From NCBI GenBank assembly GCA_024614665.1, contig GCA_024614665.1_4861.1: a stretch of DNA of 64,000 nt; one strand, written 5' to 3'. The translations under genes were made by a program, and so were the position numbers. The notes below the pieces were generated by a model. The model was not told the origin of the DNA and did not search any database. It saw only the letters and a program-made list of their open reading frames with translations. The stretch comes from a phage. Of the stretch, positions 33,813-46,293 are shown piece by piece; positions within the stretch are counted from its first letter, which is position 1; each line of letters starts with the position of its first letter.

Positions 33813-36800
33813 ATGCCGAGAGAAGATGCGGCGCAGTTTAACGGTACGCTCAGTACCGCTACTTACCCGAACCGTTATTCGGCGGTCATTCCCGTCGAAG
33901 CACCGTTCTATCGCATCGGGTTAACGTTAACCGTTACCGATAAAACAACCGGAACCAAACGCAAGTTAATAGAAGGTCTTGATTATTTCTTAGGACATTA
34001 CTTCCAGGAATTAGCCGAGGCTGAGAACGATGCAATATACGGCAGCATAATGCTGCTGAACGCCACAGAGGTAGAATACGAGTTGTTGTCGGTTGGTCGA
34101 CAGTATCGCATCCCTGCTTCTGAAATCGGCAAGTATCTGGTTAAGACAGATATGAAAGACCCGCGTAACTGCGATTGGTCTGAGCTGATGAAATATCCGC
34201 CGATTATCTCGCCAATCGACCCGCCAAAAGACCTCGAAGAAGCGATTCTTCGCGATGAAATCGTAAAGGCGTTGGAAGATATCCGTCTGGGTATTTTAGA
34301 GCGCGCCCACGAGCTGGATGAGGCTTTTGCCGAAGTTACCGATTTGATTTATCAGAACGGTAAGCAGGTGTTTGAAGATGAGATGTATCAGCACCACCTG
34401 GTTAAAAACGCACACGGTTACACCTGCGGTGATATTGGCGCTCTCCCGGTACTCGGCAAAGCCGTAGATGCGACTAAGGCATTCGGACGTACCCTGGCAG
34501 AGCTAGTGACGTTAATGTCTACCAGCGGCATCCAACAGAAACACGTTGACATGCTTCTGGATAATACCCTGGGTGATTTACTGGGCCGTATGCGTGTTCT
34601 GAATAACGACGCGATTACGTTCCAAACAACGTCTGGTCACGTTATCAGCATGAAGGGTGAGAAGTTCATCATCACCTCGACAAAACCGCTGGTATTAAAA
34701 GCTGACCAGGATAACAACGAACCGGGTATCGCTACGGAGTTCAGTGCTGGTCTGAACACGCTTTGGGTTCACTCGGGTAAAGCAGGTGACAAGTGGGGCG
34801 ATTATGATGCGGGTGTGCTTGCACCTGTGTATAATAGCGTGTATCTCGTTACACCGGATATGGTTAAGATGTACTTGACCTCGGTGAAGATACTTCCAGC
34901 AAACGCCTACTTCAAGTCCAGCGACACGTTGAAGATTTATGGCTCTGGTAAAGAAACAAACAAAGTTTACATGAATGCGGAGCTGCCTGCAGCAACCACA
35001 ACTGTGCAGGGTTTGTTTGCGATTACTAACCTTTCGGCGTCCGCTGCATCGTCCACAGCGATTTCCCAAAAAGCTGTTACTGACTTGAAGAACAAACTCG
35101 ACGGATATGTGGACGACACGTATACGGTCAACGGCAAAGGGTTTGTGTTAGACGAAAACGGTCAAATGCATTTAACCTTAACCGCGTCGGATTTCGGTAT
35201 TGAGAAGATGAACAATACCGGGCCGCTGGAGAAACCGGTTACTAATGCGTTGCGCACCGTGCTATCAGGCAAGGCACTCTCAACACACACCCACACCATT
35301 GCTGATCTCGATGACGTGCCGTACGCATCCACATCTGTTACAGGTTTGGCTAAACTGTGGGATGCTATTGACACCACAACAGATAAGATGGTTACTGCCC
35401 GCCAGGGTTTCTTGCTCGAACAGAAGATCGGTACACTGAACGACAAGATTGCTACGTTGTTGCCAGCATGGACCGTTGGCGGATCGTCGTACGGTAACAA
35501 TAACTTCTTGCCTATACCTGTCCAGGGGAACTACGAAGGGTACACCAAAAACCAAACTTGGCAAAAAGGACTGGCGCGTTACGAGGCTGGTAAGGTTTAC
35601 TCGTTGCGTAATGGTTCCAACGGTAACGCCCCTGCTGACTGGGCTATCTATTACGCCTATGCTGATGTGTCGCCAAGCAATACGCTGGAAAATATGCAGC
35701 AGACGTCCGTACGTTATCACCCCGCTGGAATGTCGGCGTATCCTGGGGTGAATCTGGTTGCTATTCTGATTACCGGTACAGATGCAATGATCTGCTTAGG
35801 CAGTGACGGTGCGTATTACCTGGTCATCTTTGACGGCACCATTGACCATGCAAAACATCATCGTGTTGTTAAAGTTTACTTGGGCGATTACCGAAATGGT
35901 AACGCGGCCGGTGTGATTACAACCGCACCATGGGTTGCCGATCCATCAACAAACGATTTGATCGTTTGCAACGATCGGGTTTATCTGCTCCGTACTGTGC
36001 TTACCTCCGGTGACTATTTCGTGAGTATGCGTAGCATCGCACTCGACGAACTTAATCTGGGTGGTAGCAACACGTTTGTGGCGGATGTGTTAACGGGTGG
36101 GATGTTAACGTCGGGAGATAATATCTACTTGCGTCAGGGTCAGAAACGTTCTGATACAGATGTGTTGGTAGCGCCAGTAACACAAATCTACGCAGACGCA
36201 TCGGCGAAGTGGAATAGTGCGCGAAATTTCGTCCATGGTCCGGAATGTAATCACGCGATTGCTGTGGATGGGCTGAACTTTCGTGTTGGTTTAACGCCAA
36301 CAGTCTGGTTTGCTTCTACTACAGGGCAAACTATTAACTTTAAACAATGGGTGTCAAGCTTTGTTGTTGATTGCAGTTCAATGACGGTAACGCTGGAAGG
36401 GGCTGATCGATTCCCTATTGTGGCTGATCTTACCGCGGTTCGTTATAACGGTGGTGCTGAGATTGGGATTCCGAGCTGGAAGTGGGGCGAAGGTCAAGCT
36501 AATAACCGAACCTTTGCAACATCGCAAGACAAGTATATTGTTTCGCAAGGACTTTCAGGCGATCGCGACCTAATGCCTTATGTCAGGATTACAACGTTAG
36601 ATGACGGTGTGAGTTGGTACGAGTACCTGTCGTGCGACTACAACTTCACTGCCAGAAGTTTTAGTGCGGTAATGTTAAACCAAGGACGTGGTTCTATCTA
36701 CGAGCTGGGTATGGCGTATCCGCTGACTCTGGGAGCGAATTCCAGACTTATCTGGTTGTCACAACCGCGTACCCGTTTGGCAATTGAAGTTGAGTTTGAT

Positions 36801-38996
36801 CCGAACACCACTTACTCAGGTAAGGCGGGGTATGGCCCAACTAACAATCGTCGTGTAGTAGATTCTATCACGTATGAGAATCTGTCGCAGATGTGCCACA
36901 TTGTTACACCGGCGTCGCCTGGTACAGAGTTAAACGGCTGGTATTGCACAGGACCAGAAACATTCCCTTACCACAACGTTTCCGGCACTTTCACGATTCA
37001 TGCCGATCGATTGACGCTGTCACAAGCTGAATGGAATAAGATGAAGCAGATGATCATCGACGGAGCACCGGCAGGCGCTGCGAATGGTTATGCTTCGGAA
37101 TTTATCCTTGCTGCAAATAACGCAGGAAAGGCATTGTTTTCCGTTTGGTTCATCGGCATCGGAACGGCCACACCGCTCACATTAGCACAAGTAGCATGTA
37201 CACGTACTGTGAACAATGTTAACGTGTTAGATATCTACTACTTTACACTGAAACCAACAATCAGCAACGGGCAGGTAACATTCCCCGCAGCGATATTGGC
37301 ACTGTTTGACTTCTATAACAACCTCGTCTATGGCTTGAACTATGCTACGTTGGGAGAGATAACGGGAGGAAAAACACGCCGGCCGGGACAACCTACCATG
37401 GTGTCGGTAGATGGTACGCAGTTCGGGTTGTATCTTCCACACACGTTAACCTTGCGCCAAATTGGCGACTTGGGTGCGCTTAACTACGGTGTCGGTCTTA
37501 CGCTGTCTAATGGTACCTGGACGCGTTCTTCTGCCCCGCGCGGCATTGGACGCATGGCACCATCACACACTCCAGTCAGCCCAGCTTATCTGGCTCATCG
37601 TGATCAGGTGATGCTACACAACTCATCTCTCGACTACGTCTATTGTGGTGGTATCGCAATGTCGTCGAGTGATTTTGTCGCGGCTCCTAATTTTAGTGGC
37701 CCGACTGAATCGGTCGTCATTGCTGGTGTGGAAACAGCCGAAGGTTGGCTGGTATATGTGACTGAGGAAGTTAACCTGCGTTTCGGCTCGAGCACTTATA
37801 AGCTGCCTACGTGGTATATTGACCTCAGCGCAGCGTTTCCAACAAACCATCAGAACCGGACATTCTACCTGCACGCCAAGGTAGAAAATGGTACACCGAA
37901 GTACGTAATGGACGTGATTCAACATCCAGACACTGAAACGGAACTCTATATCGGGTATGTTAAAACGGGCTCGTCGCGAGTCGTCGAGACTAATGTCGAA
38001 CATGTTAAGCGCTTGGGTGCGGTGAAACAGCTGTTGGAACACGCAGCAGTTGAGAATAAGCACGATGTGGAAGTGGGAAGGGATGCAGCAACGGGCAGAC
38101 TGGCACCATTACGTAAAGAAGCGATGGGTCCTTTGTCTATCGATGGCAAGAAAGGCTATCTGGATAGTCAGTTGCTTTATACCGTATCTGACGCACAGCG
38201 TCGCGGTAAAGCGATGGTGTCCAAACGTTTCGAAGGCTTGAAAACCTTGCCGGTGTTTACTCAGGCAAACAAGTCGGGGGCGTTTTGGAAACATCCTACA
38301 ACAATTGCGACGGTAACGGCCGATGAGAACGGTGAAGCGGCATCGTTGGGAATGGAGTGGGTAGGTATTCCAACGCCCGCCTTCTCTCCGACCACAACAT
38401 ACGCGATGGTGATGATACAAAGTAAATTCGTCGTCCCAGGTACACCTGGAGTGGAAACAACCTTTAATGTCAACATCGCCCCATGGGAGACGGTAGAAAT
38501 GTTTTTCTACAACGTCGAGGCGGAAGGTAAGGATGTTAACATTGATGAAAGTTCAGAACTGTTAACGCCGAGACCACATACCGTGTATCACGAACAGCAC
38601 TCTCTGCCCGCAGGCGTGCCATGTACGTTTACTTTCGTTGGTGTGTTGAGTTCCTCAGCGCTTGAGATGGCCAACCAGCATATTTGCTCTTGGCTTTTCA
38701 CGGACGCGGGGGGACTACCAATCACCACCGATCTTTCGGATAGTAAGATTCAAATCTTTCCAGCGGCGGGAGAGACCAACGGCACACCAGTTGTTTTTAA
38801 CAGCCGTAGCTACACGTTTGTGGATGTGGCGGGTGCAATTCCGGTTGTTACCACGGGCGCTCAGGGTTTATACCCACCACCGATCGTGGCGTGGGATGGC
38901 GATGATCTTACGTTAACGATTGCGCACGATTGGGTGAACGAGAGAGGATGGCAACAGGCTAATGTTATCCAGGTCAATCTTATGTTCCGTACCTAA
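33813..38996 (+). CDS. tail fibre-like protein (about 1727 aa)
   Basis: ORF track 33768..38996; start moved to ATG (MPRED...) with AGGAG RBS because upstream codons lie inside terminator hairpins; ATTTVQGLFAIT and STHTHTIADLDDV motifs. Confidence 0.75.
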   Translation: MPREDAAQFNGTLSTATYPNRYSAVIPVEAPFYRIGLTLTVTDKTTGTKRKLIEGLDYFLGHYFQELAEAENDAIYGSIMLLNATEVEYELLSVGRQYRIPASEIGKYLVKTDMKDPRNCDWSELMKYPPIISPIDPPKDLEEAILRDEIVKALEDIRLGILERAHELDEAFAEVTDLIYQNGKQVFEDEMYQHHLVKNAHGYTCGDIGALPVLGKAVDATKAFGRTLAELVTLMSTSGIQQKHVDMLLDNTLGDLLGRMRVLNNDAITFQTTSGHVISMKGEKFIITSTKPLVLKADQDNNEPGIATEFSAGLNTLWVHSGKAGDKWGDYDAGVLAPVYNSVYLVTPDMVKMYLTSVKILPANAYFKSSDTLKIYGSGKETNKVYMNAELPAATTTVQGLFAITNLSASAASSTAISQKAVTDLKNKLDGYVDDTYTVNGKGFVLDENGQMHLTLTASDFGIEKMNNTGPLEKPVTNALRTVLSGKALSTHTHTIADLDDVPYASTSVTGLAKLWDAIDTTTDKMVTARQGFLLEQKIGTLNDKIATLLPAWTVGGSSYGNNNFLPIPVQGNYEGYTKNQTWQKGLARYEAGKVYSLRNGSNGNAPADWAIYYAYADVSPSNTLENMQQTSVRYHPAGMSAYPGVNLVAILITGTDAMICLGSDGAYYLVIFDGTIDHAKHHRVVKVYLGDYRNGNAAGVITTAPWVADPSTNDLIVCNDRVYLLRTVLTSGDYFVSMRSIALDELNLGGSNTFVADVLTGGMLTSGDNIYLRQGQKRSDTDVLVAPVTQIYADASAKWNSARNFVHGPECNHAIAVDGLNFRVGLTPTVWFASTTGQTINFKQWVSSFVVDCSSMTVTLEGADRFPIVADLTAVRYNGGAEIGIPSWKWGEGQANNRTFATSQDKYIVSQGLSGDRDLMPYVRITTLDDGVSWYEYLSCDYNFTARSFSAVMLNQGRGSIYELGMAYPLTLGANSRLIWLSQPRTRLAIEVEFDPNTTYSGKAGYGPTNNRRVVDSITYENLSQMCHIVTPASPGTELNGWYCTGPETFPYHNVSGTFTIHADRLTLSQAEWNKMKQMIIDGAPAGAANGYASEFILAANNAGKALFSVWFIGIGTATPLTLAQVACTRTVNNVNVLDIYYFTLKPTISNGQVTFPAAILALFDFYNNLVYGLNYATLGEITGGKTRRPGQPTMVSVDGTQFGLYLPHTLTLRQIGDLGALNYGVGLTLSNGTWTRSSAPRGIGRMAPSHTPVSPAYLAHRDQVMLHNSSLDYVYCGGIAMSSSDFVAAPNFSGPTESVVIAGVETAEGWLVYVTEEVNLRFGSSTYKLPTWYIDLSAAFPTNHQNRTFYLHAKVENGTPKYVMDVIQHPDTETELYIGYVKTGSSRVVETNVEHVKRLGAVKQLLEHAAVENKHDVEVGRDAATGRLAPLRKEAMGPLSIDGKKGYLDSQLLYTVSDAQRRGKAMVSKRFEGLKTLPVFTQANKSGAFWKHPTTIATVTADENGEAASLGMEWVGIPTPAFSPTTTYAMVMIQSKFVVPGTPGVETTFNVNIAPWETVEMFFYNVEAEGKDVNIDESSELLTPRPHTVYHEQHSLPAGVPCTFTFVGVLSSSALEMANQHICSWLFTDAGGLPITTDLSDSKIQIFPAAGETNGTPVVFNSRSYTFVDVAGAIPVVTTGAQGLYPPPIVAWDGDDLTLTIAHDWVNERGWQQANVIQVNLMFRT

Positions 38997-39043: not shown

Positions 39044-40246
39044 ATGGCCGAAATCATTTATCAGTACCCGCTCGACCTTACCGGGACATTAACGTCGAAC
39101 GCCGTTACGCGGCGTATTACGTTAGGTTCTGGTAAAGTTAACCGGGCTTTTGCATTTCCTGACGGAGCTTTCTACGCGGATACTTTCCGCTTAGCGGCTG
39201 CGAACAAACCGGGTGTCTACCCGTACAAACGTGGTACAGACTACGAGCTGATTTTTGCACATACTGCATATCAGAAAATGACCAAGAACCGCGAAGTGGT
39301 CATGGGTGTGGTGGTAACTAACTCGGCCATTCCTACAGATATCGAAGTCTCTGCGCAAGTCGTTGGTGGTTTTCAGTCTGCGAACGTCGAAGGCATCCGA
39401 CAAGCGATTGCGTCGTTGAAAATTGAAGACCGCGTGGTGGACTTCAAGGATCTTCGGAACGTACCCGATACGTTCCCGTCCGCACCGACGTATAAAGACC
39501 TTGGCGATATCTACGGTTTTGAGTACATCATTACCGTGCTCGCGGGGATTAAAGATGCGATTAACTCCGGCTCTGCAGTACAGCTGGAAGAAATTAAAGG
39601 TATTCTGGACGGTCTGAAAAACGACTTCCTCGATGCCTTAAATACCCACATCAACGCCGAAGGTAACGTACACAATCTCGACATTCATCAGGTTAATGGC
39701 CTGACGGAGACGGAGATTCGTGCTCTGATTCAAAGTGTACAGACTGCCATTGACGCCACTATCAGAGATATCGGCGACTTAAGAGCAGCAGACACGGCGT
39801 TGGGGCAACGCATCGATGCAGTTGTGGCTTCGTTAGCCGCGTGGAACGACCAGCTTAATGTAGTTGCTCAAAATTACCAGAAAATGTCGTTAGCATTAGC
39901 TAACCTTAATTCTCTGGTGTTGCAATTACAGAAGAAGGTTAATGATCTTCAGTCTGCGCTGAATGAAACAAATCAGCGTGTCACGGATCTTGAGAATCAA
40001 GGCAAAGACTTCCAACAGCAAATTGATAACCTGCAAGGACAAATCAACAGTCTTAAAACTCAGGTTGTAAACAACACCAACGCAATTTCGCAGGCAAACC
40101 AGAATCTGGCGAACCATGCGGCTGCGGATAACCCACACCCGAATTACCTCCATAAACAGTATGGCGGTGTTGTGCAGGCTGCTGTTCACGTCAACAACAA
40201 CCTCACCTCGCGCGACGATGTTCAAGCTGAAGCGGGTACTAAGTAA
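39044..40246 (+). CDS. tail fibre-like protein with C-terminal coiled coil (about 400 aa)
   Basis: ORF track 39008..40246; ATG (MAEIIYQ...) with AAGGAG RBS; shared N-terminal module (GTDYELIFAHTAY); heptad-like Q/N/L-rich segment. Confidence 0.7.
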   Translation: MAEIIYQYPLDLTGTLTSNAVTRRITLGSGKVNRAFAFPDGAFYADTFRLAAANKPGVYPYKRGTDYELIFAHTAYQKMTKNREVVMGVVVTNSAIPTDIEVSAQVVGGFQSANVEGIRQAIASLKIEDRVVDFKDLRNVPDTFPSAPTYKDLGDIYGFEYIITVLAGIKDAINSGSAVQLEEIKGILDGLKNDFLDALNTHINAEGNVHNLDIHQVNGLTETEIRALIQSVQTAIDATIRDIGDLRAADTALGQRIDAVVASLAAWNDQLNVVAQNYQKMSLALANLNSLVLQLQKKVNDLQSALNETNQRVTDLENQGKDFQQQIDNLQGQINSLKTQVVNNTNAISQANQNLANHAAADNPHPNYLHKQYGGVVQAAVHVNNNLTSRDDVQAEAGTK

Positions 40247-40253
40247 CTTGTTT

Positions 40254-40300
40254 ACGAGCCGGACTATGTTTATGGACATAGTCCGCTCGTTCTACTTTTT
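40254..40300 (+). terminator. intrinsic terminator between tail fibre module and Cys-rich peptide genes
   Basis: long imperfect hairpin ACGAGCCGGACTATG...CATAGTCCGCTCGT followed by TCTACTTTTT. Confidence 0.6.
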
Positions 40301-40311
40301 AAGGAAGCGTA

Positions 40312-40704
40312 ATGGCGATATCTATTAAAGACGTCAGAAACCGCGTCCAGATAGTCGAAGCTAACATGGCGACAGGCCCCCGTATCGACGCGCAAGTGGC
40401 CTCTAAAGCCCATAACGCGGCAGACCGATTTGGGGGTTGGACGAAAACACAGCTAGATTGCGGCGGGACATGTTCTTGGACGTGCTCTAACGGTTGCTCG
40501 CATGGCTGTTCGAGCTGTTCAGGAAGCTGTTCTGCTTCTTGTATCGGTAGCTGTTCTTCGACGTGTGGCGGTAACTGTTCTGGTTGCTCTGGTTGTTCTG
40601 GTGGTTGCAGTAGTAGCTGTACCGGTAACTGCACAGGTGGTTGCGGTGGCTCTTGTTCCGCAAACTGCTCCGGGGCCTGCTCCGGCGGCTGTTCAGGTCG
40701 CTAA
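40312..40704 (+). CDS. Cys-rich repeat peptide 1 (130 aa), candidate radical-SAM substrate
   Basis: AAGGAAG RBS; about 50-aa leader-like N-terminus then core with Cys every 4th residue (CSNGCSHGCSSCSGSCSASC...). Confidence 0.7.
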   Translation: MAISIKDVRNRVQIVEANMATGPRIDAQVASKAHNAADRFGGWTKTQLDCGGTCSWTCSNGCSHGCSSCSGSCSASCIGSCSSTCGGNCSGCSGCSGGCSSSCTGNCTGGCGGSCSANCSGACSGGCSGR

Positions 40705-41110
40705 GGGGGATTAAATGGCAATTGGATTAAAAGAACTGAATAACCGATTAAACACGATCGATGCAAACGCTCTAAAGAATACCACGAATGTGCAAAACTA
40801 CATTCGCAATAAAGCTACGAATAACGCCGACTTGTTCGCAGGTCAAGGCCGTTCGCACTATGACTGTGGTGGCACATGCTCTTTTAGTTGCTCGAGTTGT
40901 TCTGGCGGATGTACTGGGTCTGCGACAGGTGGTTGTGGGTCGACTTGTTCGGCAAACTGTGTATCAGGCTGTAGCAGCAGCTGCACGGGCTGTAGCTCTT
41001 CGTGCTCTGGTGGTTGTAGCGGCACGTGCACAGGCAGCTGTTCTGGGGGTTGTGGTAAATCCTGCTCCGCAAACTGCTCAGGTGCGTGCTCTGGTGGTTG
41101 TTCAGGTCCT
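40480..41110 (+). repeat. periodic Cys-codon region encoding the cores of Cys-rich peptides 1 and 2
   Basis: 12-nt (4-codon) periodicity of TGT/TGC; Ser and Gly codons vary synonymously between repeats, so periodicity is at protein level. Confidence 0.6.
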
Positions 41111-41119
41111 AACTCCTAA
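40715..41119 (+). CDS. Cys-rich repeat peptide 2 (134 aa), paralog of peptide 1
   Basis: AAGGGGGA RBS; conserved leader and DCGGTCS core entry; same C-terminal CSANCSGACSGGCSG ending as peptide 1. Confidence 0.7.
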   Translation: MAIGLKELNNRLNTIDANALKNTTNVQNYIRNKATNNADLFAGQGRSHYDCGGTCSFSCSSCSGGCTGSATGGCGSTCSANCVSGCSSSCTGCSSSCSGGCSGTCTGSCSGGCGKSCSANCSGACSGGCSGPNS

Positions 41120-41134
41120 CTGACGGAGGCTTAT

Positions 41135-41341
41135 GTGATCAGTCTCAAGACTATTCGAAACCGTCTCGTTACGGCAGAAGGCTACATTACAACCGCGCAG
41201 GCAAACAACTATATCGCTAACCAGGGCACCGTGTCAACCACGAACAACCTGGCTGGTTTACCGCTTTCTCACTATAACTGTAATGGTGGGTGTAGCTGGT
41301 CCTGCAGCGGAAGCTGTAGCCGTGGAGCGGGGAATCGATAA
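41135..41341 (+). CDS. Cys-rich repeat peptide 3 (68 aa, short paralog)
   Basis: GTG start with GACGGAGG RBS; leader related to peptides 1 and 2; short core NCNGGCSWSCSGSCS. Confidence 0.55.
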   Translation: MISLKTIRNRLVTAEGYITTAQANNYIANQGTVSTTNNLAGLPLSHYNCNGGCSWSCSGSCSRGAGNR

Positions 41342-41363: not shown

Positions 41364-42251
41364 ATGAAAAACGATTTGCATCTTGCGTATAAAACCACAT
41401 TCAACCACCCGCTGCATCTATCTTCCCCAGATTCGGTGCGTGCACACCTCGCTGACAAAGTCAGACTGATTGCACAGATTCCTGGTGAGTGGCCAAAGGT
41501 TCGTGGTCGCTTCTTGACCGACAAGAAGAACTACACCGTAGAAAATACGTTTAAGATCCGTGATATGGTTGCAGAGGCCATCGTTATCTTTAACGGCGAT
41601 GGTAACTCTCGCGGCGTGTTGGTTGACGGTAAGTATTTCTTCAGTGAAGGGATTCTGAACAACAGTGTCGATTTAGAACTGATGTTTACACCGTTTGACG
41701 AACTCGAAGCAAAACCGATGGCGCGCCGTTGGTGGAGTCCGGACTATCTGGGCTCGTTCCCTTACTACTTTGTACTGGTACCTGCCGATACGGAAACGTA
41801 TTTCGACACCGAACCGTACATCGATATCGAGGGATATAAAGAACTCGGCATCACCCGTTTAGCGGACATGATGGCGTATAGCTATAAGTTCGTGTGGGAT
41901 AAAAAGCGTTCTGTCTGGTATGCGCTGACTGACGATTTTGAAATCACCAAACGTATTCGTAAGCCGTGGATGCAACACCTGGTTCAAACCCGATATGGGG
42001 ATTACCCGGCGACAGAAGCGGATTTGAGTAAGCTGGTAAGCTTCCTCTTAACGAAGGTGGATTTAACGAAAGAAGAAGCAGAAGCTGTTTCTGAGATTCG
42101 TAGTCGTTCGGTTACGTTGGCCGATTTGAAACGCTTGAACGAAAGACATGCCGACCTGAACAAAATTTTAGCTGCCTATCACGACCCGATGTTACTGGTG
42201 CCTGGCGCTAATGTAGACGAAGATCCTTTATTCGCCATTGATTATATTTAA
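41364..42251 (+). CDS. hypothetical protein (295 aa) within the radical-SAM cluster
   Basis: ORF track; co-directional, tightly packed between precursors and radical-SAM genes. Confidence 0.6.
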   Translation: MKNDLHLAYKTTFNHPLHLSSPDSVRAHLADKVRLIAQIPGEWPKVRGRFLTDKKNYTVENTFKIRDMVAEAIVIFNGDGNSRGVLVDGKYFFSEGILNNSVDLELMFTPFDELEAKPMARRWWSPDYLGSFPYYFVLVPADTETYFDTEPYIDIEGYKELGITRLADMMAYSYKFVWDKKRSVWYALTDDFEITKRIRKPWMQHLVQTRYGDYPATEADLSKLVSFLLTKVDLTKEEAEAVSEIRSRSVTLADLKRLNERHADLNKILAAYHDPMLLVPGANVDEDPLFAIDYI

Positions 42252-42273: not shown

Positions 42274-43188
42274 ATGACAGATCAAGTAGAATCCAGGATC
42301 TCGTCTGAACTGTACGACAAACCGTCAATTCTGTCGGTTGTCGCAACTTCTAAGTGTAACTTAGACTGTAGCTTCTGTGGAGGGGCTTATTACATGGATA
42401 GAGAAGATACTTCTCGTGAGTTTCAACGTGAAGAGATTCTCTCGATTTTAGAGAAGAATCCGGATATCGGTGAAATTCATTGGACGGGCGGTGAGCCGCT
42501 GTTAGCGCAGCGCAAGATTGAAGACTTCGTGAACGAGTTGAAGGAGTCTCATCCGAACCTCCGTCATCACATGTACACCAACGGTTTAAAGATGCGTAAA
42601 TCACATCTGCCGTTGCTGAAACAGTTCGACCTTATCTTTGTGTCCATTGACGGCTACAAGAAGTCGGAACGTCCGTTTATGAACTTTGTAAACGGTGGTA
42701 ATCACGAAGCGCTGGAAGTGCTGTACGAGCTGGACAACTATTACACCTGGGGTGTGATGACGCGTGACCAGTTAGGTGATAAACGCTGGTACGAAGATTT
42801 CATCGAGCTGCACCGAGCAATCTATCATTACCGTCCAGGTGGTATGTCGTTGCTGTTTGATGCGATGATGCCGAAACCGTTATCGCCAGACCACGTCATG
42901 AACTTCATGTACGGGTATTGGAAAATACTCGACAATATCGAACGCCTTAACATGCAGAACGATTCTGAGTGTGGGCTTGCGATCAGTAAAATGTTCGATA
43001 CTGAGTGCAACACGTGCAGTGAAGTGCTGTGGCTTAACGCCGACGGTACGCAGGAGCAAATTCAGAACGCCCCAGAGATATTGGAAGTCGGCTGTAATCG
43101 CCTGGCGCGTTCTATCGGCGTTGATGCGTATAACTACATCAACCGTGTAATTTCTGCTAAGCGTAAACGGGCGGCGAACAATGAGTAA
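42274..43188 (+). CDS. radical SAM enzyme (about 304 aa)
   Basis: CNLDCSFC (CxxxCxxC) near N-terminus; GGEPLL; C-terminal Cys cluster (ECGLA...ECNTCSE...GCN); ATG with CTGGAG RBS (ORF track starts 42238). Confidence 0.75.
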   Translation: MTDQVESRISSELYDKPSILSVVATSKCNLDCSFCGGAYYMDREDTSREFQREEILSILEKNPDIGEIHWTGGEPLLAQRKIEDFVNELKESHPNLRHHMYTNGLKMRKSHLPLLKQFDLIFVSIDGYKKSERPFMNFVNGGNHEALEVLYELDNYYTWGVMTRDQLGDKRWYEDFIELHRAIYHYRPGGMSLLFDAMMPKPLSPDHVMNFMYGYWKILDNIERLNMQNDSECGLAISKMFDTECNTCSEVLWLNADGTQEQIQNAPEILEVGCNRLARSIGVDAYNYINRVISAKRKRAANNE

Positions 43189-44509
43189 CAGCGAACAGCA
43201 AATCCAGTACACACCACGCACGTATCAGGTTGTGACTAACCTGTCATGTAATCTGGACTGCGAATACTGCTACGAGCGTAAATATCCTCGTAACAACAAA
43301 GTAGCAGACGTGATTGATTTTATCCACGCTTGTTTCGAGCGTGATAAAGATATCCCGAACGTTGAGGTCATCATCGATATCATCGGTGGTGAGCCGTTCA
43401 TGCAGCCTAAACTTCTTTTGGCGGCCTTTGAAACCGCAGAGAAGTTATGCGCAGAACACAATCGCCCGTATATGTTCAGTATCTCCACGAACGGTACACT
43501 TCTGGACCGTCCGCTGAACAAAGAAATTATCGAGCGCTGGAAAGACAAACTGTCTATTGGGGTCTCCATCGATGGTTTACCTGAAGTCCATGACAAATAT
43601 CGTATCTTTACCACGACGCGTGAAGGGTCGTACGAAGCTGCGGTACGCGGTTACAATTATCTGAAGAGTGTTGGCATCGCTGAATTAGGCGTAAAGGCGA
43701 CGTTTACGATCGATACATTGCCGCACTATGCCGCCAGCATGAAATCGTTAATTGACATGTCCGGCGGTGGTACCATTTCTGGTAACGTAACGTACGAAGA
43801 TATCCTGCCGCGCCATATGGCGTTGGATATCGCGAACCAGATGATGGACGTGATGGACTACTGGATTGAGAAGGGTCTGCACACCAACCCGCGTAACACG
43901 ATTACACACATCATCCCGGATGGCCTGAACTTTATGGCAACTTGGGACCCGGATTGGCGTGACAAACTCTTACATGACGACTCTGTTCGTCTCGACCCAG
44001 AACGCCTGAAACCGTACTGCGGTACGTTGACGCACATGACCTGTCTCGGCTTTGATCGCAAGATTTACGGTTGTAACCGTTTCATGTCCACGGTAACTTC
44101 CCGTTCTGCTGTAGCAGAACTGGTCGGTCGTGAGTTTGTGAGCCTGGACGGTGGTAAGTTGTTAGAAGAGATTCAAACACAGTACACCAACTACCCAGAA
44201 ACCTGTTTAGGGTGTCCGATGAAACACAGTTGCGGTAGCTGCGCAGCAGCATCGTACGAAAACGGTGAAGGTACACTGGAAGACCGTAAAGCGTATCACG
44301 CCGAGCGTCGTCAGTGTGGTTGGACTACTGCGAAGCTGATGGCGGCGGAATATTGGTATCAGAAAACTGGTACGACCCGCGCATCAGATTTGCATGATAA
44401 ATCCATGTGCTATTGTTCACGTTGTGTACGCCAACGTGCTGAAGCAGAAAAATTACAAAACGGAGCCCAGAATGAAGTCAATACTGATTCACAATTTTAC
44501 GAAGCGTAA
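43181..44509 (+). CDS. radical SAM enzyme with SPASM-like C-terminal domain (442 aa)
   Basis: CNLDCEYC (CxxxCxxC); IGGEPF; C-terminal CLGCPMKHSCGSC resembling the SPASM auxiliary-cluster motif; start overlaps stop of preceding radical-SAM gene by 8 nt. Confidence 0.8.
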   Translation: MSNSEQQIQYTPRTYQVVTNLSCNLDCEYCYERKYPRNNKVADVIDFIHACFERDKDIPNVEVIIDIIGGEPFMQPKLLLAAFETAEKLCAEHNRPYMFSISTNGTLLDRPLNKEIIERWKDKLSIGVSIDGLPEVHDKYRIFTTTREGSYEAAVRGYNYLKSVGIAELGVKATFTIDTLPHYAASMKSLIDMSGGGTISGNVTYEDILPRHMALDIANQMMDVMDYWIEKGLHTNPRNTITHIIPDGLNFMATWDPDWRDKLLHDDSVRLDPERLKPYCGTLTHMTCLGFDRKIYGCNRFMSTVTSRSAVAELVGREFVSLDGGKLLEEIQTQYTNYPETCLGCPMKHSCGSCAAASYENGEGTLEDRKAYHAERRQCGWTTAKLMAAEYWYQKTGTTRASDLHDKSMCYCSRCVRQRAEAEKLQNGAQNEVNTDSQFYEA

Positions 44510-45038
44510 ACTGCACTTGGTCGATCGCTTCCTGCGCAAAAGCAAGCTGTACAATGTGCACGCAATTGTGGCAGGGGAAGACTTCACTGATGAAATCCAA
44601 AGCCTGTTGATTAAATACGGGCTGAATGTGATGATCCCGGTCTACTGCGTTGAGAAAGGACACGAGTCTGTCGCGGAAATCGAAAAGCGCAACCCCGGCT
44701 TTGAGAAGCGACTGCTTGCATACCCACGCCACAAAATCGAACTGCTACGTCACTCTATTGATGAAGCCAGTCCTGAAAGTTTAGTGGCTTTGGGCTTGTC
44801 TTTCCCGCGGATGCGTATTCGTAACTTACGCTCCAATAACCCGGTTGACGCTTATTACACAGAGCGTCAAATCTTCGAAGAACACCTGCTCCCGCAGTTG
44901 GAAGAAGAAGAGCAACACAACATTTCTCTGTTGTGGGCCGGTAACCTCGATCAGGACTTCCAGATGCTGGACTTCGGTTTGTTGTTAGAACTTGGCCTGA
45001 TTGAGGAGGACGAATGTCTGTTACTGACAAAAGCTTAA
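44472..45038 (+). CDS. hypothetical protein (about 188 aa)
   Basis: ORF track 44394..45038; ATG (MKSILIH...) with ACGGAG RBS; overlaps 3' end of SPASM gene. Confidence 0.5.
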   Translation: MKSILIHNFTKRKLHLVDRFLRKSKLYNVHAIVAGEDFTDEIQSLLIKYGLNVMIPVYCVEKGHESVAEIEKRNPGFEKRLLAYPRHKIELLRHSIDEASPESLVALGLSFPRMRIRNLRSNNPVDAYYTERQIFEEHLLPQLEEEEQHNISLLWAGNLDQDFQMLDFGLLLELGLIEEDECLLLTKA

Positions 45039-45685
45039 CGAACGAAGAGATCCGCGCCCGTTATTTCCAGCGTGATTTGCCGATTGATCGTCACGGTAAT
45101 TTCATGGAACGAATCGGTGCGCAGGATCAGGGCCGTACAGGCTTTTGCGCTCTGCTCCATTATCATCTCATCGAAGGGATGTCTGATAAAGAAGCCCTGG
45201 CACGCATGAAGCTGTATGAGATGTCGGAGATTGAAGCTAACTTCACATTGAAACGCACGAAAGAGTTTATTGCTAATGTGCTGGAGATTGACCTCGACGA
45301 AATTCGCGGGAATCTGAAATCTACCGCACGTTACATTTACGAAGACGTGCAGAAGATGCTGTTGGAGCTTGACCACCGCTACGAAGATGAGCGTCATGGT
45401 TATATCGAGTTTGAAGGTAGTCACTTTCAAGCCGATGAATCGTCGCGTACCATCCTCGGTCAATACATTCAGGCAGATACCGCACCAGAATACTGGCTCG
45501 ATACGCTGAATACTAAGCACAGTCCGTTTACAGTAGCCCAATGTAAAGCGTTGCTGGCCGCTATTGTTGCACGTGACCAAGTGTTGCACTCAGCAATGGC
45601 AGATAACAAACGCCATATCCGTGAGTTAGCTGAAAAGCGCGATTACACTGGATTAAAAACATTGTCCGAATCTCTCGGCATTTAA
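45014..45685 (+). CDS. hypothetical protein (223 aa)
   Basis: GAGGAGG RBS; followed by bidirectional terminator. Confidence 0.6.
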   Translation: MSVTDKSLTNEEIRARYFQRDLPIDRHGNFMERIGAQDQGRTGFCALLHYHLIEGMSDKEALARMKLYEMSEIEANFTLKRTKEFIANVLEIDLDEIRGNLKSTARYIYEDVQKMLLELDHRYEDERHGYIEFEGSHFQADESSRTILGQYIQADTAPEYWLDTLNTKHSPFTVAQCKALLAAIVARDQVLHSAMADNKRHIRELAEKRDYTGLKTLSESLGI

Positions 45686-45687
45686 GC

Positions 45688-45745
45688 AAAGAAAATAAAG
45701 GCCCTACCTCCCTTCGGGGAGGTAGGTACCTTATTTTATTTCTTA
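45688..45745. terminator. bidirectional intrinsic terminator closing the radical-SAM cluster
   Basis: A-rich run, hairpin CCTACCTCCC-TTCG-GGGAGGTAGG, T-rich run; between convergent genes ending 45685 and 45766. Confidence 0.7.
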
Positions 45746-45765: not shown

Positions 45766-46293
45766 TTAAACGAATCCGTCCAGTTCACCGTTGGTGGTGC
45801 TCAGGTCAGTTTTAACGATTGGCTGCGTTACAGTATAAACTGCAGGGCTGCCAGGTCGGTATTTAATGTGGCCTGATTTCACCTTAACAGTGATGACTTT
45901 CTCACCACTGCTGCCGTCCACGCGTTTAATGATGAGTTCAGACAATGCAAACGCATCTTCCGTTTTACCGGCGGCAATTAGATCTGCGTTGACAAAAGCA
46001 AGCACTTCTTCATCGGTATCCCATTCTGCCTGGTCAGCGGTAACTGCCTTCTCACCGATGATGTCCGATAAATTGAGGCGGGTATAATGCAGCTCTTTCA
46101 CGCCAGTAAAGTTAGCGGATTCCGCGGTGGCGGTGATGGTGAGATTGGTGTTGCGAGTGTCTCCAGAATCTGCTGGTGAATAGTCAGCAACAGCGCCGAA
46201 TGTAACGTCAGCAGCAGTTAACGGACTAGGCAGTCCGCTGTTTGCAGCATTAAACAGCGCGACGAGTTGGTCTTTTGCAGAGATGACTGCCAT
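45766..46293 (-). CDS. short family-A paralog (175 aa)
   Basis: AAGGAAA RBS; LHYTRLNLSDI motif and C-terminal TNGELDGFV shared with long family-A proteins. Confidence 0.6.
   Translation of the reverse strand: MAVISAKDQLVALFNAANSGLPSPLTAADVTFGAVADYSPADSGDTRNTNLTITATAESANFTGVKELHYTRLNLSDIIGEKAVTADQAEWDTDEEVLAFVNADLIAAGKTEDAFALSELIIKRVDGSSGEKVITVKVKSGHIKYRPGSPAVYTVTQPIVKTDLSTTNGELDGFV

Follow-up and report, generated by a model that had tools for sequence, protein, structure and literature searches.

Cysteine-repeat proteins beside two radical-SAM enzymes in an SPN3US-like jumbo phage: candidate tail-associated structural proteins with a probable enzymatically modified repeat

Introduction

What purpose might be served by three small tandem phage genes, two of which encode a cysteine at almost every fourth residue of a long core, and how are they related to the radical S-adenosylmethionine (rSAM) enzymes encoded just downstream? 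The question is raised by a stretch of 64,000 nucleotides of phage DNA (contig GCA_024614665.1_4861.1 of the NCBI GenBank assembly GCA_024614665.1; this whole stretch is called the window below), in which three consecutive open reading frames (ORFs) between positions 40312 and 41341 encode peptides of 130, 134 and 68 aa. A preliminary description, made from the sequence alone, had regarded them as paralogous precursors in which a conserved leader guides the iterative modification of a repetitive core. The analysis presented here leads to a partly different answer. The three ORFs are real genes, and their products are very probably substrates of iterative enzymatic modification; with moderate confidence, we favour the view that they are small tail-associated structural proteins whose Cys repeat is iteratively modified or cross-linked by the adjacent pair of rSAM enzymes, and not precursors of released peptides.

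The window derives from an SPN3US-like jumbo phage, the region in question being 98-99% identical to jumbo phages of Salmonella that belong to the genus Seoulvirus (99.3% to SaP7 and 98.9% to SPN3US), and its genes are named here after their SPN3US counterparts. The Cys-repeat genes sit in a + strand gene block that corresponds to SPN3US gp168 to gp161, where they are followed by genes for a gp165-like protein, two rSAM enzymes (rSAM1 and rSAM2) and a gp162-like protein; together these make up what we call the cassette.

Three paralogous proteins with a Cys repeat

The ORFs lie exactly where the preliminary description had placed them. Cys-repeat protein 1 (40312..40704, + strand; ATG start, 130 aa, 21 Cys) consists of an N-terminus with a helix and a junction, followed by a C-S-G-x repeat. 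Cys-repeat protein 2 (40715..41119, +) also starts with ATG and contains 20 Cys in 134 aa, and the short paralogue 3 (41135..41341, +; GTG start, 68 aa) carries the N-terminal segment, the motif C-x-G-x-C-S-W and two further Cys. Successive Cys are four residues apart in 17 of the 20 intervals of peptide 1 (three in the other three) and in 16 of the 19 intervals of peptide 2 (three in two, eight in one); the earlier statement that Cys recurs about 20 times thus holds for these two peptides and fails for peptide 3, which has four Cys only. The consensus repeat unit is C-S-G-x, and the cores are rich in Ser, Gly, Cys and Thr. Charged residues number no more than one in the core of either long peptide and two in that of peptide 3, and Asp and Glu are entirely missing from the cores of peptides 1 and 2. 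When all six frames of the 64-kb window were searched for at least eight Cys at a spacing of three or four, the pattern matched the genes of peptides 1 and 2 and nothing else.

The N-terminal regions of about 50 aa are homologous, as previously proposed, with global alignment scores of 75 and 61 against shuffle means of -16 and -8 (standard deviation ~9); 'NNADLFAGQGRSHYDCGGTCSF' is an example of the junction in the window peptides. The conserved entry into the core had been given as HYDCGGTCSW/F, which is only approximately right, since the actual motifs are QLDCGGTCSW (peptide 1), HYDCGGTCSF (peptide 2) and HYNCNGGCSW (peptide 3). What is invariant across 24 orthologues and paralogues is C-x-G-x-C-S, and the next residue is W in at least 90% of them. 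The N-terminal halves contain Lys and Arg, the expected tryptic peptides including VQIVEANMATGPR and IDAQVASK. At the other end, both long peptides terminate with CSANCSGACSGGCSG, in agreement with the common C-terminus noted before. Recent gene conversion was considered as the source of this shared end and was rejected, as the DNA differs there at several synonymous sites; judged by eye, these differences make selection on the protein the more likely cause.

In an AlphaFold2 model of peptide 2, residues 5-32 form a helix (predicted local distance difference test, pLDDT, ~80), whereas the Cys core has no confident fold (pLDDT ~42). This would fit, without proving it, a chain that becomes ordered only after modification or with the help of partners or metal. 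A scan of the peptides against Pfam, in a set that did not include the PF27846 model, returned no match, and a profile search of the PDB with the repeat yielded Cys-rich matches only, all of them insignificant.

The 8-residue interval in peptide 2 is worth a remark of its own. It spans residues 66-74 and reads CTGSATGGC in Seoulvirus and Machinavirus, where Derbicusvirus and Wellingtonvirus keep the Cys (CTGTCSGTC), and it implies that one repeat position is dispensable or lineage-specific.

Are the three ORFs translated?

The region is open in several frames and on both strands, and annotators have differed in their choice of frame, as might be expected if the three ORFs were no more than untranslated open frames in low-complexity, GC-rich DNA. 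Orthologues of all three, however, occupy the same position in seven Erwinia/Cronobacter phages (pEa_SNUABM_29, Machina, Caitlin, Phobos, CR5, Derbicus and Kwan), which allowed four genera to be compared, namely Seoulvirus, Machinavirus, Derbicusvirus and Wellingtonvirus. Against pEa_SNUABM_29, the only comparison that is not saturated, the proportion of nonsynonymous differences (pN) in the Cys frame is 0.05-0.15 and that of synonymous differences (pS) 0.58-0.81; against orthologues from all four genera, pN is far below pS specifically in this frame, with synonymous sites near saturation. In addition, a Shine-Dalgarno (SD) site precedes each of the three genes in every phage compared (AAGGAAG for peptide 1), the Cys columns are invariant and a large family of homologous proteins exists (see below). 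The selection analysis led us to reject the artefact explanation, which we find barely credible: the three ORFs are real genes.

Why have they been overlooked? Neither the RefSeq nor the GenBank record of SPN3US contains any of the three; both show instead a wrong-frame ORF of 336 nt (gp166/gp100; NC_027402 7786-8121). The records of Caitlin, Phobos, CR5, Kwan and pEa_SNUABM_29 place opposite-strand or fragmentary ORFs over the same DNA, and those of EC001 and Machina annotate the genes correctly, as hypothetical proteins. Because published proteomics was based on these annotations, it could not detect the proteins. The main text and supplements of the SPN3US papers give no proteomic data for gp161-166, offering only a CoreGenes table, and do not mention the peptides.

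Peptide 3, which had been described merely as a short version of the other two, turns out to be more than that, since each of the four genera has kept it; in Derbicusvirus and Wellingtonvirus it has two Cys and is reduced to C-x-G-x-C-S-W alone. This conservation without a repeat suggests that it may serve in docking, priming or regulation and not as a substrate. In these two genera peptide 3 ends with SSGGAK(A/S)V(T/S)(W/F)PS (L005:3455-3664, L006:3460-3669, L007:3463-3672 and L010:3461-3670).

The enzymes next to the repeat

Downstream of the peptides lie a gene for an accessory protein and genes for two rSAM enzymes. The gp165-like protein (41364..42251, +; 295 aa) is a conserved third component of the cassette with a novel fold and no family match beyond phrog_8030. 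rSAM1 (gp164-like; 42274..43188, +; 304 aa, with ATG 42274 as the likely true start) matches Pfam Radical_SAM at 1e-15 and, in the alignment of its orthologues, displays CX3CX2C and three conserved C-terminal Cys; NCBIfam offers no specific family for it. rSAM2 (gp163-like; 43181..44509, +; 442 aa) likewise matches Pfam Radical_SAM and has, besides C23/C27/C30 (CX3CX2C), the invariant C280, C298, C342, C345, C351, C354 and C379, which form a SPASM-like set of seven. As its CX3CX2C already begins at residue 23, an N-terminal recognition domain could not fit in front of it. The gp162-like protein (44472..45038, +; 188 aa) overlaps the rSAM2 stop codon, is annotated in SPN3US and its relatives, has no Pfam match and is homologous to the protein directly after rSAM2 in an unrelated contig (L015; BLASTP 3e-11), which makes it a probable further accessory.

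The best NCBIfam match of rSAM2 is TIGR04115, the 'radical SAM peptide maturase, CXXX-repeat target family' (3e-36, 125.6 bits), followed by PapB (1e-32, 113.6 bits) and, at 53.9 bits, the SCIFF maturase; it has 113 homologues, and its nearest solved structure is CteB (5wgg). The curated cutoffs stand at 350 bits for TIGR04115, 340 for PapB, 425 for SCIFF, 20 for the target family TIGR04114 and 50 for TIGR04117. The peptides score 18.5 (peptide 1), 17.1 and 13.7 bits against TIGR04114 and 12.8 bits against TIGR04117, all below cutoff and, for TIGR04114, borderline. In the PHROG collection, the peptides fall into phrog_6085 (E 9e-40 for peptide 1 and 3e-24 for peptide 3), which like phrog_8030 has no functional annotation, and both rSAMs into phrog_1802, labelled only 'radical SAM domain-containing protein'. 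The idea of a substrate is nevertheless well founded, because TIGR04115 and PapB are the best families of rSAM2 and the peptides come close to the TIGR04114 cutoff.

An alternative is that the proteins remain unmodified and act as Cys-rich structural or metal-binding proteins, either metallothionein-like or as a stalk laddered by disulfides after lysis, the rSAMs serving another purpose. The regular spacing of Cys among small residues does resemble metal-binding or disulfide-ladder repeats, rSAM1 has no specific family assignment, and there are weak profile matches to EGFR Cys-rich regions and to Cys-rich domains of the nematocyst wall; the latter, however, are insignificant (E ~0.5). This explanation also has to contend with the best matches of rSAM2, which are peptide maturases of Cys-containing substrates, with the conserved order of the genes and the existence of rSAM1-rSAM2 fusions, and with the tight tie between the repeat and the rSAM2 clade across very divergent phages. 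In IMG/VR, approached from the enzyme side, a Cys-repeat ORF stands on the same strand beside the rSAM2 relative at 71 of 80 loci, and at least four of the nine negative loci are truncated upstream. We therefore hold the unmodified state to be distinctly unlikely. The part of the preliminary description that saw in the peptides substrates of iterative modification is supported by the two rSAM genes, the TIGR04115 and TIGR04114 matches and these 71 loci.

Relatives with the repeat at the end of fibre-like proteins

How far does the association extend, and what kind of protein carries the repeat elsewhere? Distant homologues of rSAM2, with 32-47% identity, were traced to their contigs. In a prophage of Deferribacter abyssi, a gene for a GpJ-like tail protein is followed by those for two small proteins, a 302-aa protein and homologues of gp165, rSAM1 and rSAM2; the 302-aa protein contains fibre-type HxHDxRYYTE repeats and reaches its end with '...KATNADQLGGQAGSYYRCSDCSWTCSSSC' and a long Cys repeat, so that the order fibre, Cys-repeat, gp165-like, rSAM1, rSAM2 recurs there. 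In a 213-kb phage contig, a 568-aa fibre-like protein by a T4 gp13-like gene ends with '...AVTLGGQPPDFYTCGGSCSWSC...', and two rSAM genes come next. A 27-kb contig encodes homologues of gp165, rSAM1, rSAM2 and gp162 together with two small peptides of the window's type, the genes of which adjoin Peptidase_S74 fibre genes. No similarity was detected between gp165 and a 224-aa protein of locus L013, or between gp162 and an 80-aa protein of Deferribacter.

From the peptide side, the profile retrieves more than 1,100 proteins (clusters at 90% identity), or 1,858 representatives at 50% identity, 480 of them at E <= 1e-10, and many of these relatives carry precomputed matches to PF27846 (tSAM_targ_Cxxx_rpt). 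An adjacent rSAM gene was present in all the contexts retrieved. One is a capsid/adaptor/tail block that also encodes a gp165 homologue and a protein in which rSAM1 and rSAM2 are fused, another is a 210-kb contig, and a T7-like block runs from T7 gp14 and Phage_T7_tail through the Cys-repeat protein, a 238-aa protein and a fused double rSAM to SLT and terminase; the bacterial-type cluster L018, described below, is a further one. Other loci adjoin Phage_T7_tail, T4 gp13, SU10 adaptor or Peptidase_S74 fibre genes. The fused enzymes, of ~669 aa (L016:8490-10499 and L019:8330-10336, one of the two contigs being T7-like), join rSAM1 and rSAM2 in the order of the separate genes of the window; their N-terminal half lacks the three C-terminal Cys conserved in stand-alone rSAM1, and their best family is PapB (~205 bits).

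Three architectures can be told apart. In the first, a phage fibre-like N-terminus is followed by an NAxxLxGQxxxYYRC-x3-CSW junction and the repeat, some members having carbohydrate-binding or collagen-like segments; the second, common in gut-phage contigs, combines a different N-domain with the repeat; and the third comprises bacterial proteins that are small and carry Tat signals. In the 79 distinct repeat proteins of the IMG/VR loci, 86% of the Cys intervals have a spacing of four, the residue after Cys is Ser or Thr in 53% and the one after that Gly in 48%, and the repeat is C-terminal in 67 of the proteins. Ten upstream neighbours in these loci were scanned; four of them have a PHROG match with a named function, which in every case is that of a tail protein (baseplate wedge, tail fibre, tape measure).

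The length of the repeat can be extreme. Huge members (P0283, 1785 aa; L097:3702-6776, 1025 aa; L073:11016-12278) have Cxxx units over ~600 aa, or 76-87 Cys, some of them in CxxC variants (for example C-x-T-C-E-x-C-D), which indicates that the length of the module is highly variable between lineages, though fixed within the SPN3US group.

Leader and core, or junction and repeat?

The layout of an N-terminal region and a Cys-rich core beside rSAM/SPASM maturase-like genes is typical of ranthipeptides and sactipeptides, and the products could accordingly be classical RiPPs (peptides that are made by the ribosome and modified after translation), whose leader guides the rSAMs and is cleaved off, and whose thioether-rich core is released at lysis as an antimicrobial, signal or metal chelator. 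The bacterial relatives lend some weight to this explanation, being small, equipped with Tat signals and encoded beside TIGR04115, TIGR04119, TIGR04116 and TatA/TatC genes, as does the lack of a predicted fold for the core. The leader/core division itself, however, does not behave as it should. The preliminary description had proposed an alignment of homologues to see whether the leader is conserved and the core varies in length, and the reverse was seen: in the long peptides of the four genera, the core holds 20-23 Cys and the total length is 127-142 aa, and in most comparisons the core is more conserved than the leader. Against pEa_SNUABM_29, pN is 0.05 in the core and 0.125 in the leader of peptide 1, and 0.116 and 0.207, respectively, in peptide 2. 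In a few comparisons the core is slightly less conserved than the leader, namely with Caitlin for peptides 1 and 2 and with the phages of Derbicusvirus and Wellingtonvirus for peptide 3. Nor were any peptidase, leader protease, exporter or transporter domains found among the neighbouring genes scanned.

More telling still is the fate of the 'leader' in other proteins. Its C-terminal part (N-x-x-D/N-x-L/F-x-G-x5-Y-x-C) corresponds to the segment that stands before the Cys repeat of long fibre-like phage proteins, where the role of a leader is impossible. In the phrog_6085 model, which was built from the jumbo-phage peptides, 'leader' positions 15-50 align to this pre-repeat segment, and the junction plus repeat of the window peptides aligns with the C-terminal ends of long proteins whose tail-fibre, PTR, carbohydrate-binding-module or collagen-like features are weak. 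Junction and repeat together form the C-terminus of proteins of 206-568 aa, and of up to 1785 aa, and the long relatives carry fibre repeats, collagen-like repeats or weak matches to carbohydrate-binding domains. Finally, tail modules harbour the cassette in myovirus-like, T7-like and prophage contexts alike; in the window it is flanked by gp168/gp167 on one side and by a chaperone/GP38-adhesin/endolysin region on the other, as a tail or baseplate module would have it. We regard the classical RiPP explanation as unlikely, if conceivable for the small jumbo-phage versions, and the conserved-leader, variable-core layout that had been read into the peptides is not supported.

Could the modified proteins instead act only transiently, as a scaffold, a chaperone or a carrier of iron-sulfur clusters or sulfur, and be absent from the mature particle? 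They share their tail module with an annotated tail assembly chaperone and with DUF4376 and DUF1353 genes, and peptide 3, conserved almost without a repeat, might be regulatory. In many phages, however, the repeat belongs to the chain of large fibre-like proteins that have carbohydrate-binding or collagen-like segments, which points to a structural role in the finished product and renders such a purely assisting function highly unlikely.

What the analysis favours, then, is that the three proteins are tail-associated structural proteins. The cassette keeps its composition and order, repeat and enzymes go closely together in many phages, the location is in tail modules and the repeat is elsewhere fused to long fibre-like proteins; from these observations we infer that the enzymes act on these proteins, what type of modification they install, which parts the accessory proteins play and that the products are incorporated into the virion.

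A possible mechanism

Judging from their position, the three proteins would be made late, together with the tail genes. The N-terminal helix and the junction (N-x-x-D-x-L/F-x-G-x5-Y) probably dock to the baseplate or fibre apparatus or drive oligomerization, a role suggested by the homology of the junction with the boundary between shaft and repeat in the long fibre-like proteins. The motif C-x-G-x-C-S-W, being invariant and present also in some Tat-type bacterial members, may mark the start of the substrate region, behind which ~20 C-[S/T]-G-x units follow. Along these, rSAM2, as a SPASM enzyme and a distant member of the PapB/CXXX-repeat-maturase clade, would install a series of short rings. 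The likeliest chemistry would be that of many short intramolecular thioether rings, in each of which a Cys sulfur is joined to a carbon of a neighbouring residue. Because the cores have neither Asp nor Glu, the acceptor must differ from that of PapB; the conserved Ser/Thr immediately after each Cys, three residues before the next one, may be proposed as a candidate, by way of speculation. rSAM1, which invariably accompanies the SPASM enzyme and in some cases is fused with it, would perform a second radical step, and gp165 and gp162 may present the substrate to rSAM2, seeing that the latter has no N-terminal extension for a recognition domain. A floppy Gly/Ser-rich chain could in this way become a rod or tip held by covalent staples and resistant to reductants and proteases, which would be a sensible solution for a particle assembled in the reducing cytoplasm.

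Several points weigh against this proposal. rSAM2 is far below the curated cutoffs of TIGR04115 and PapB, and the TIGR04119 and TIGR04116 partners are absent, both from the matches of gp165 and gp162 at E <= 0.1 and from the 25 best matches listed for rSAM1. The chemistry of the relatives cannot simply be transferred, since they use Asp/Glu or Thr as acceptors and the cores are nearly free of acidic residues, and the proposal does not account for the presence of two separate radical-SAM enzymes. As for a place in the tail, the small proteins of the window have no recognizable fibre domain of their own, phrog_6085 is a family of 'unknown function', the fibre-domain matches of the long relatives are weak or below cutoff, and published SPN3US proteomics searched an annotation without these ORFs.

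Comparison with known systems

Targets with Cys at every fourth position are already known as curated bioinformatic families of rSAM substrates. To our knowledge, the CXXX-repeat system (target TIGR04114/TIGR04117, rSAM TIGR04115, with TIGR04119 and TIGR04116) has been defined in silico only and its chemistry is undescribed; a literature search found no experimental or phage-related paper on CXXX-repeat targets. The window shares with it the Cys at every fourth residue of a Ser/Gly/Thr-rich repeat, an adjacent rSAM/SPASM enzyme with TIGR04115 as best family and peptides that match TIGR04114 at 17-18.5 bits (cutoff 20), and some Tat-type bacterial members start their repeat with C-N-G-S-C-S-W (P0229). 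It differs in the distance of its rSAM2 from the family, the 125.6 bits of which compare with 625 for a genuine member (in L018) and 296-309 for gut-phage versions; in having no TIGR04119, TIGR04116, Tat signal or Tat genes; in possessing a second rSAM, the novel-fold gp165-like protein and the gp162-like protein; and in its setting in a phage tail module, with the repeat often fused to fibre-like proteins. L018 is a canonical bacterial-type cluster (TIGR04115, TIGR04119, TIGR04116 and TatA/TatC) and served as a positive control; gp165 is unrelated to its TIGR04119 protein (hhalign probability 0.1%). Since rSAM2 and the peptides are below the curated thresholds and the canonical partners are missing as well, the window proteins stand outside the TIGR04115 and PapB equivalog families, and the cassette is a divergent, phage-specific variant with an accessory set of its own.

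The Tat-type CXXX system of L018 (L018:6001-9809), with a target of 97 aa that carries a Tat signal, is located directly beside phage integrase and P22-portal-like genes, so that mobile or phage elements may carry the 'bacterial' form as well.

The maturases PapB, acting on freyrasin, and CteB, acting on SCIFF, form thioethers, with Asp/Glu (PapB) or Thr (CteB) as acceptors. Like them, rSAM2 combines CX3CX2C with auxiliary-cluster Cys, CteB being its nearest solved structure, and the window peptides resemble freyrasin in their repeated Cys-X3 motifs, which in freyrasin are modified iteratively. Unlike PapB, rSAM2 scores 113.6 bits where 340 would be required, it has no room for an N-terminal recognition domain and is accompanied by a second rSAM, and the substrates have ~20 repeats instead of six and a core devoid of Asp/Glu acceptors; also, the product would probably be a structural protein and not a small released peptide.

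Reinforced phage structures are known in other forms, such as the isopeptide 'chainmail' of HK97, the tip of the T4 long tail fibre with its His-coordinated iron and the self-cleaving Peptidase_S74 fibre chaperones. There, as would be the case here, a structural element gains stability from post-translational chemistry or cofactors, with receptor-binding or tail modules involved; what sets the cassette apart is a dedicated set of radical-SAM enzymes acting on a Cys-every-fourth repeat, an enzyme-installed reinforcement that is only proposed here.

Searches of the literature on SPN3US and radical SAM, on rSAM and tail fibres, on phage RiPPs and on Erwinia jumbo phages returned nothing on these genes, and rSAM-modified Cys-repeat modules in phage tail proteins appear to be undescribed in the literature searched. 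What would follow if they existed? Tentatively, and as a possibility that may well prove wrong, we put forward that phages of several morphotypes (the jumbo myovirus, T7-like contigs, gut-phage contigs and the Deferribacter prophage) use radical-SAM enzymes to install some 20 or more consecutive covalent cross-links in a Cys repeat of the tail fibre or baseplate. If true, radical-SAM-dependent maturation of a tail or fibre component would add a new class to the post-translational modifications of virions, with a 'thioether-stapled' fibre module assembled in the reducing cytoplasm, where disulfides cannot form, and the cross-linking of Cys to Ser, Thr, Gly or Cys acceptors would be a chemistry undescribed for any rSAM/SPASM enzyme. 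The data thus suggest an undescribed enzymatic hardening of phage fibres, with potential relevance to particle stability, host recognition and the engineering of robust receptor-binding proteins. It would also explain a recurrent piece of phage genomes that is un- or misannotated, because the family is large (~1,858 representatives) and in viral contigs almost always found beside the enzyme. Existing proteomic data are blind to the genes on account of the misannotation in the RefSeq record of SPN3US and in several Erwinia phage records; SPN3US itself is culturable and genetically tractable on Salmonella, with amber mutants and proteomics established (PMC5105663), which makes the CXXX question directly testable.

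Genomic setting

At the upstream end of the + strand block lies the gene for a large gp168-like baseplate/fibre protein (33813..38996, +), which matches SPN3US gp168 and whose start was derived from the 5184-nt SPN3US annotation. According to PMC5105663, SPN3US gp168 belongs to the tail (baseplate/fibre) and resembles phiKZ gp131. Next comes a gp167-like coiled-coil protein (39044..40246, +), named 'virion structural protein' in SPN3US and its relatives, whose Pfam matches are to coiled coils only; the phiKZ homologue of gp167 is ORF134, marked as structural (supplement of PMC5105663). In contrast, gp161-165 are common to SPN3US, PhiEaH2 and CR5 and without a phiKZ homologue (PMC5105663 and supplement), for which reason the cassette looks like a lineage-specific insertion into a conserved baseplate/fibre module. 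The last gene of the block encodes a gp161-like DUF4376 protein (45014..45685, +; Pfam DUF4376 8.6e-9), the position of which is kept in all related phages.

Successive genes of the cassette overlap, rSAM1 and rSAM2 by 8 nt (43181-43188), rSAM2 and gp162 by 38 nt (44472-44509) and gp162 and gp161 by 25 nt (45014-45038), and this suggests translational coupling. Between the gp167-like stop codon and the first Cys-repeat gene, a conserved hairpin with a U-rich run (40254..40289, +; minimum free energy -24.1 kcal/mol, z = -4.1) recurs with a UAUGG-like loop at the same place in seven related phages, with differing stem sequences; it suggests a conserved terminator, attenuator or RNA-processing site that separates expression of the cassette from that of gp167. 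An Rfam scan of the region gave no match. The block is closed by a hairpin resembling a bidirectional intrinsic terminator (45703..45726, no strand assigned), with a stem of 10 bp, seven of them GC pairs, and T-runs on both strands.

On the 3' side, the cassette is followed by the DUF4376 protein, a 'tail assembly chaperone' gene, a GH108 endolysin and a protein that contains the adhesin domain of T4 Gp38; the chaperone label is taken from the annotation of related phage records, and the protein concerned carries Pfam DUF1353. The adhesin-type protein, of 725 aa (49189-51366, - strand), combines DUF7941 with the T4 Gp38 tail-fibre adhesin domain and its Gly-rich motifs, and DUF7941 is found again in a 175-aa neighbour (45766-46293, -). 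These two proteins, encoded near the cassette on the opposite strand, are likely receptor-binding components.

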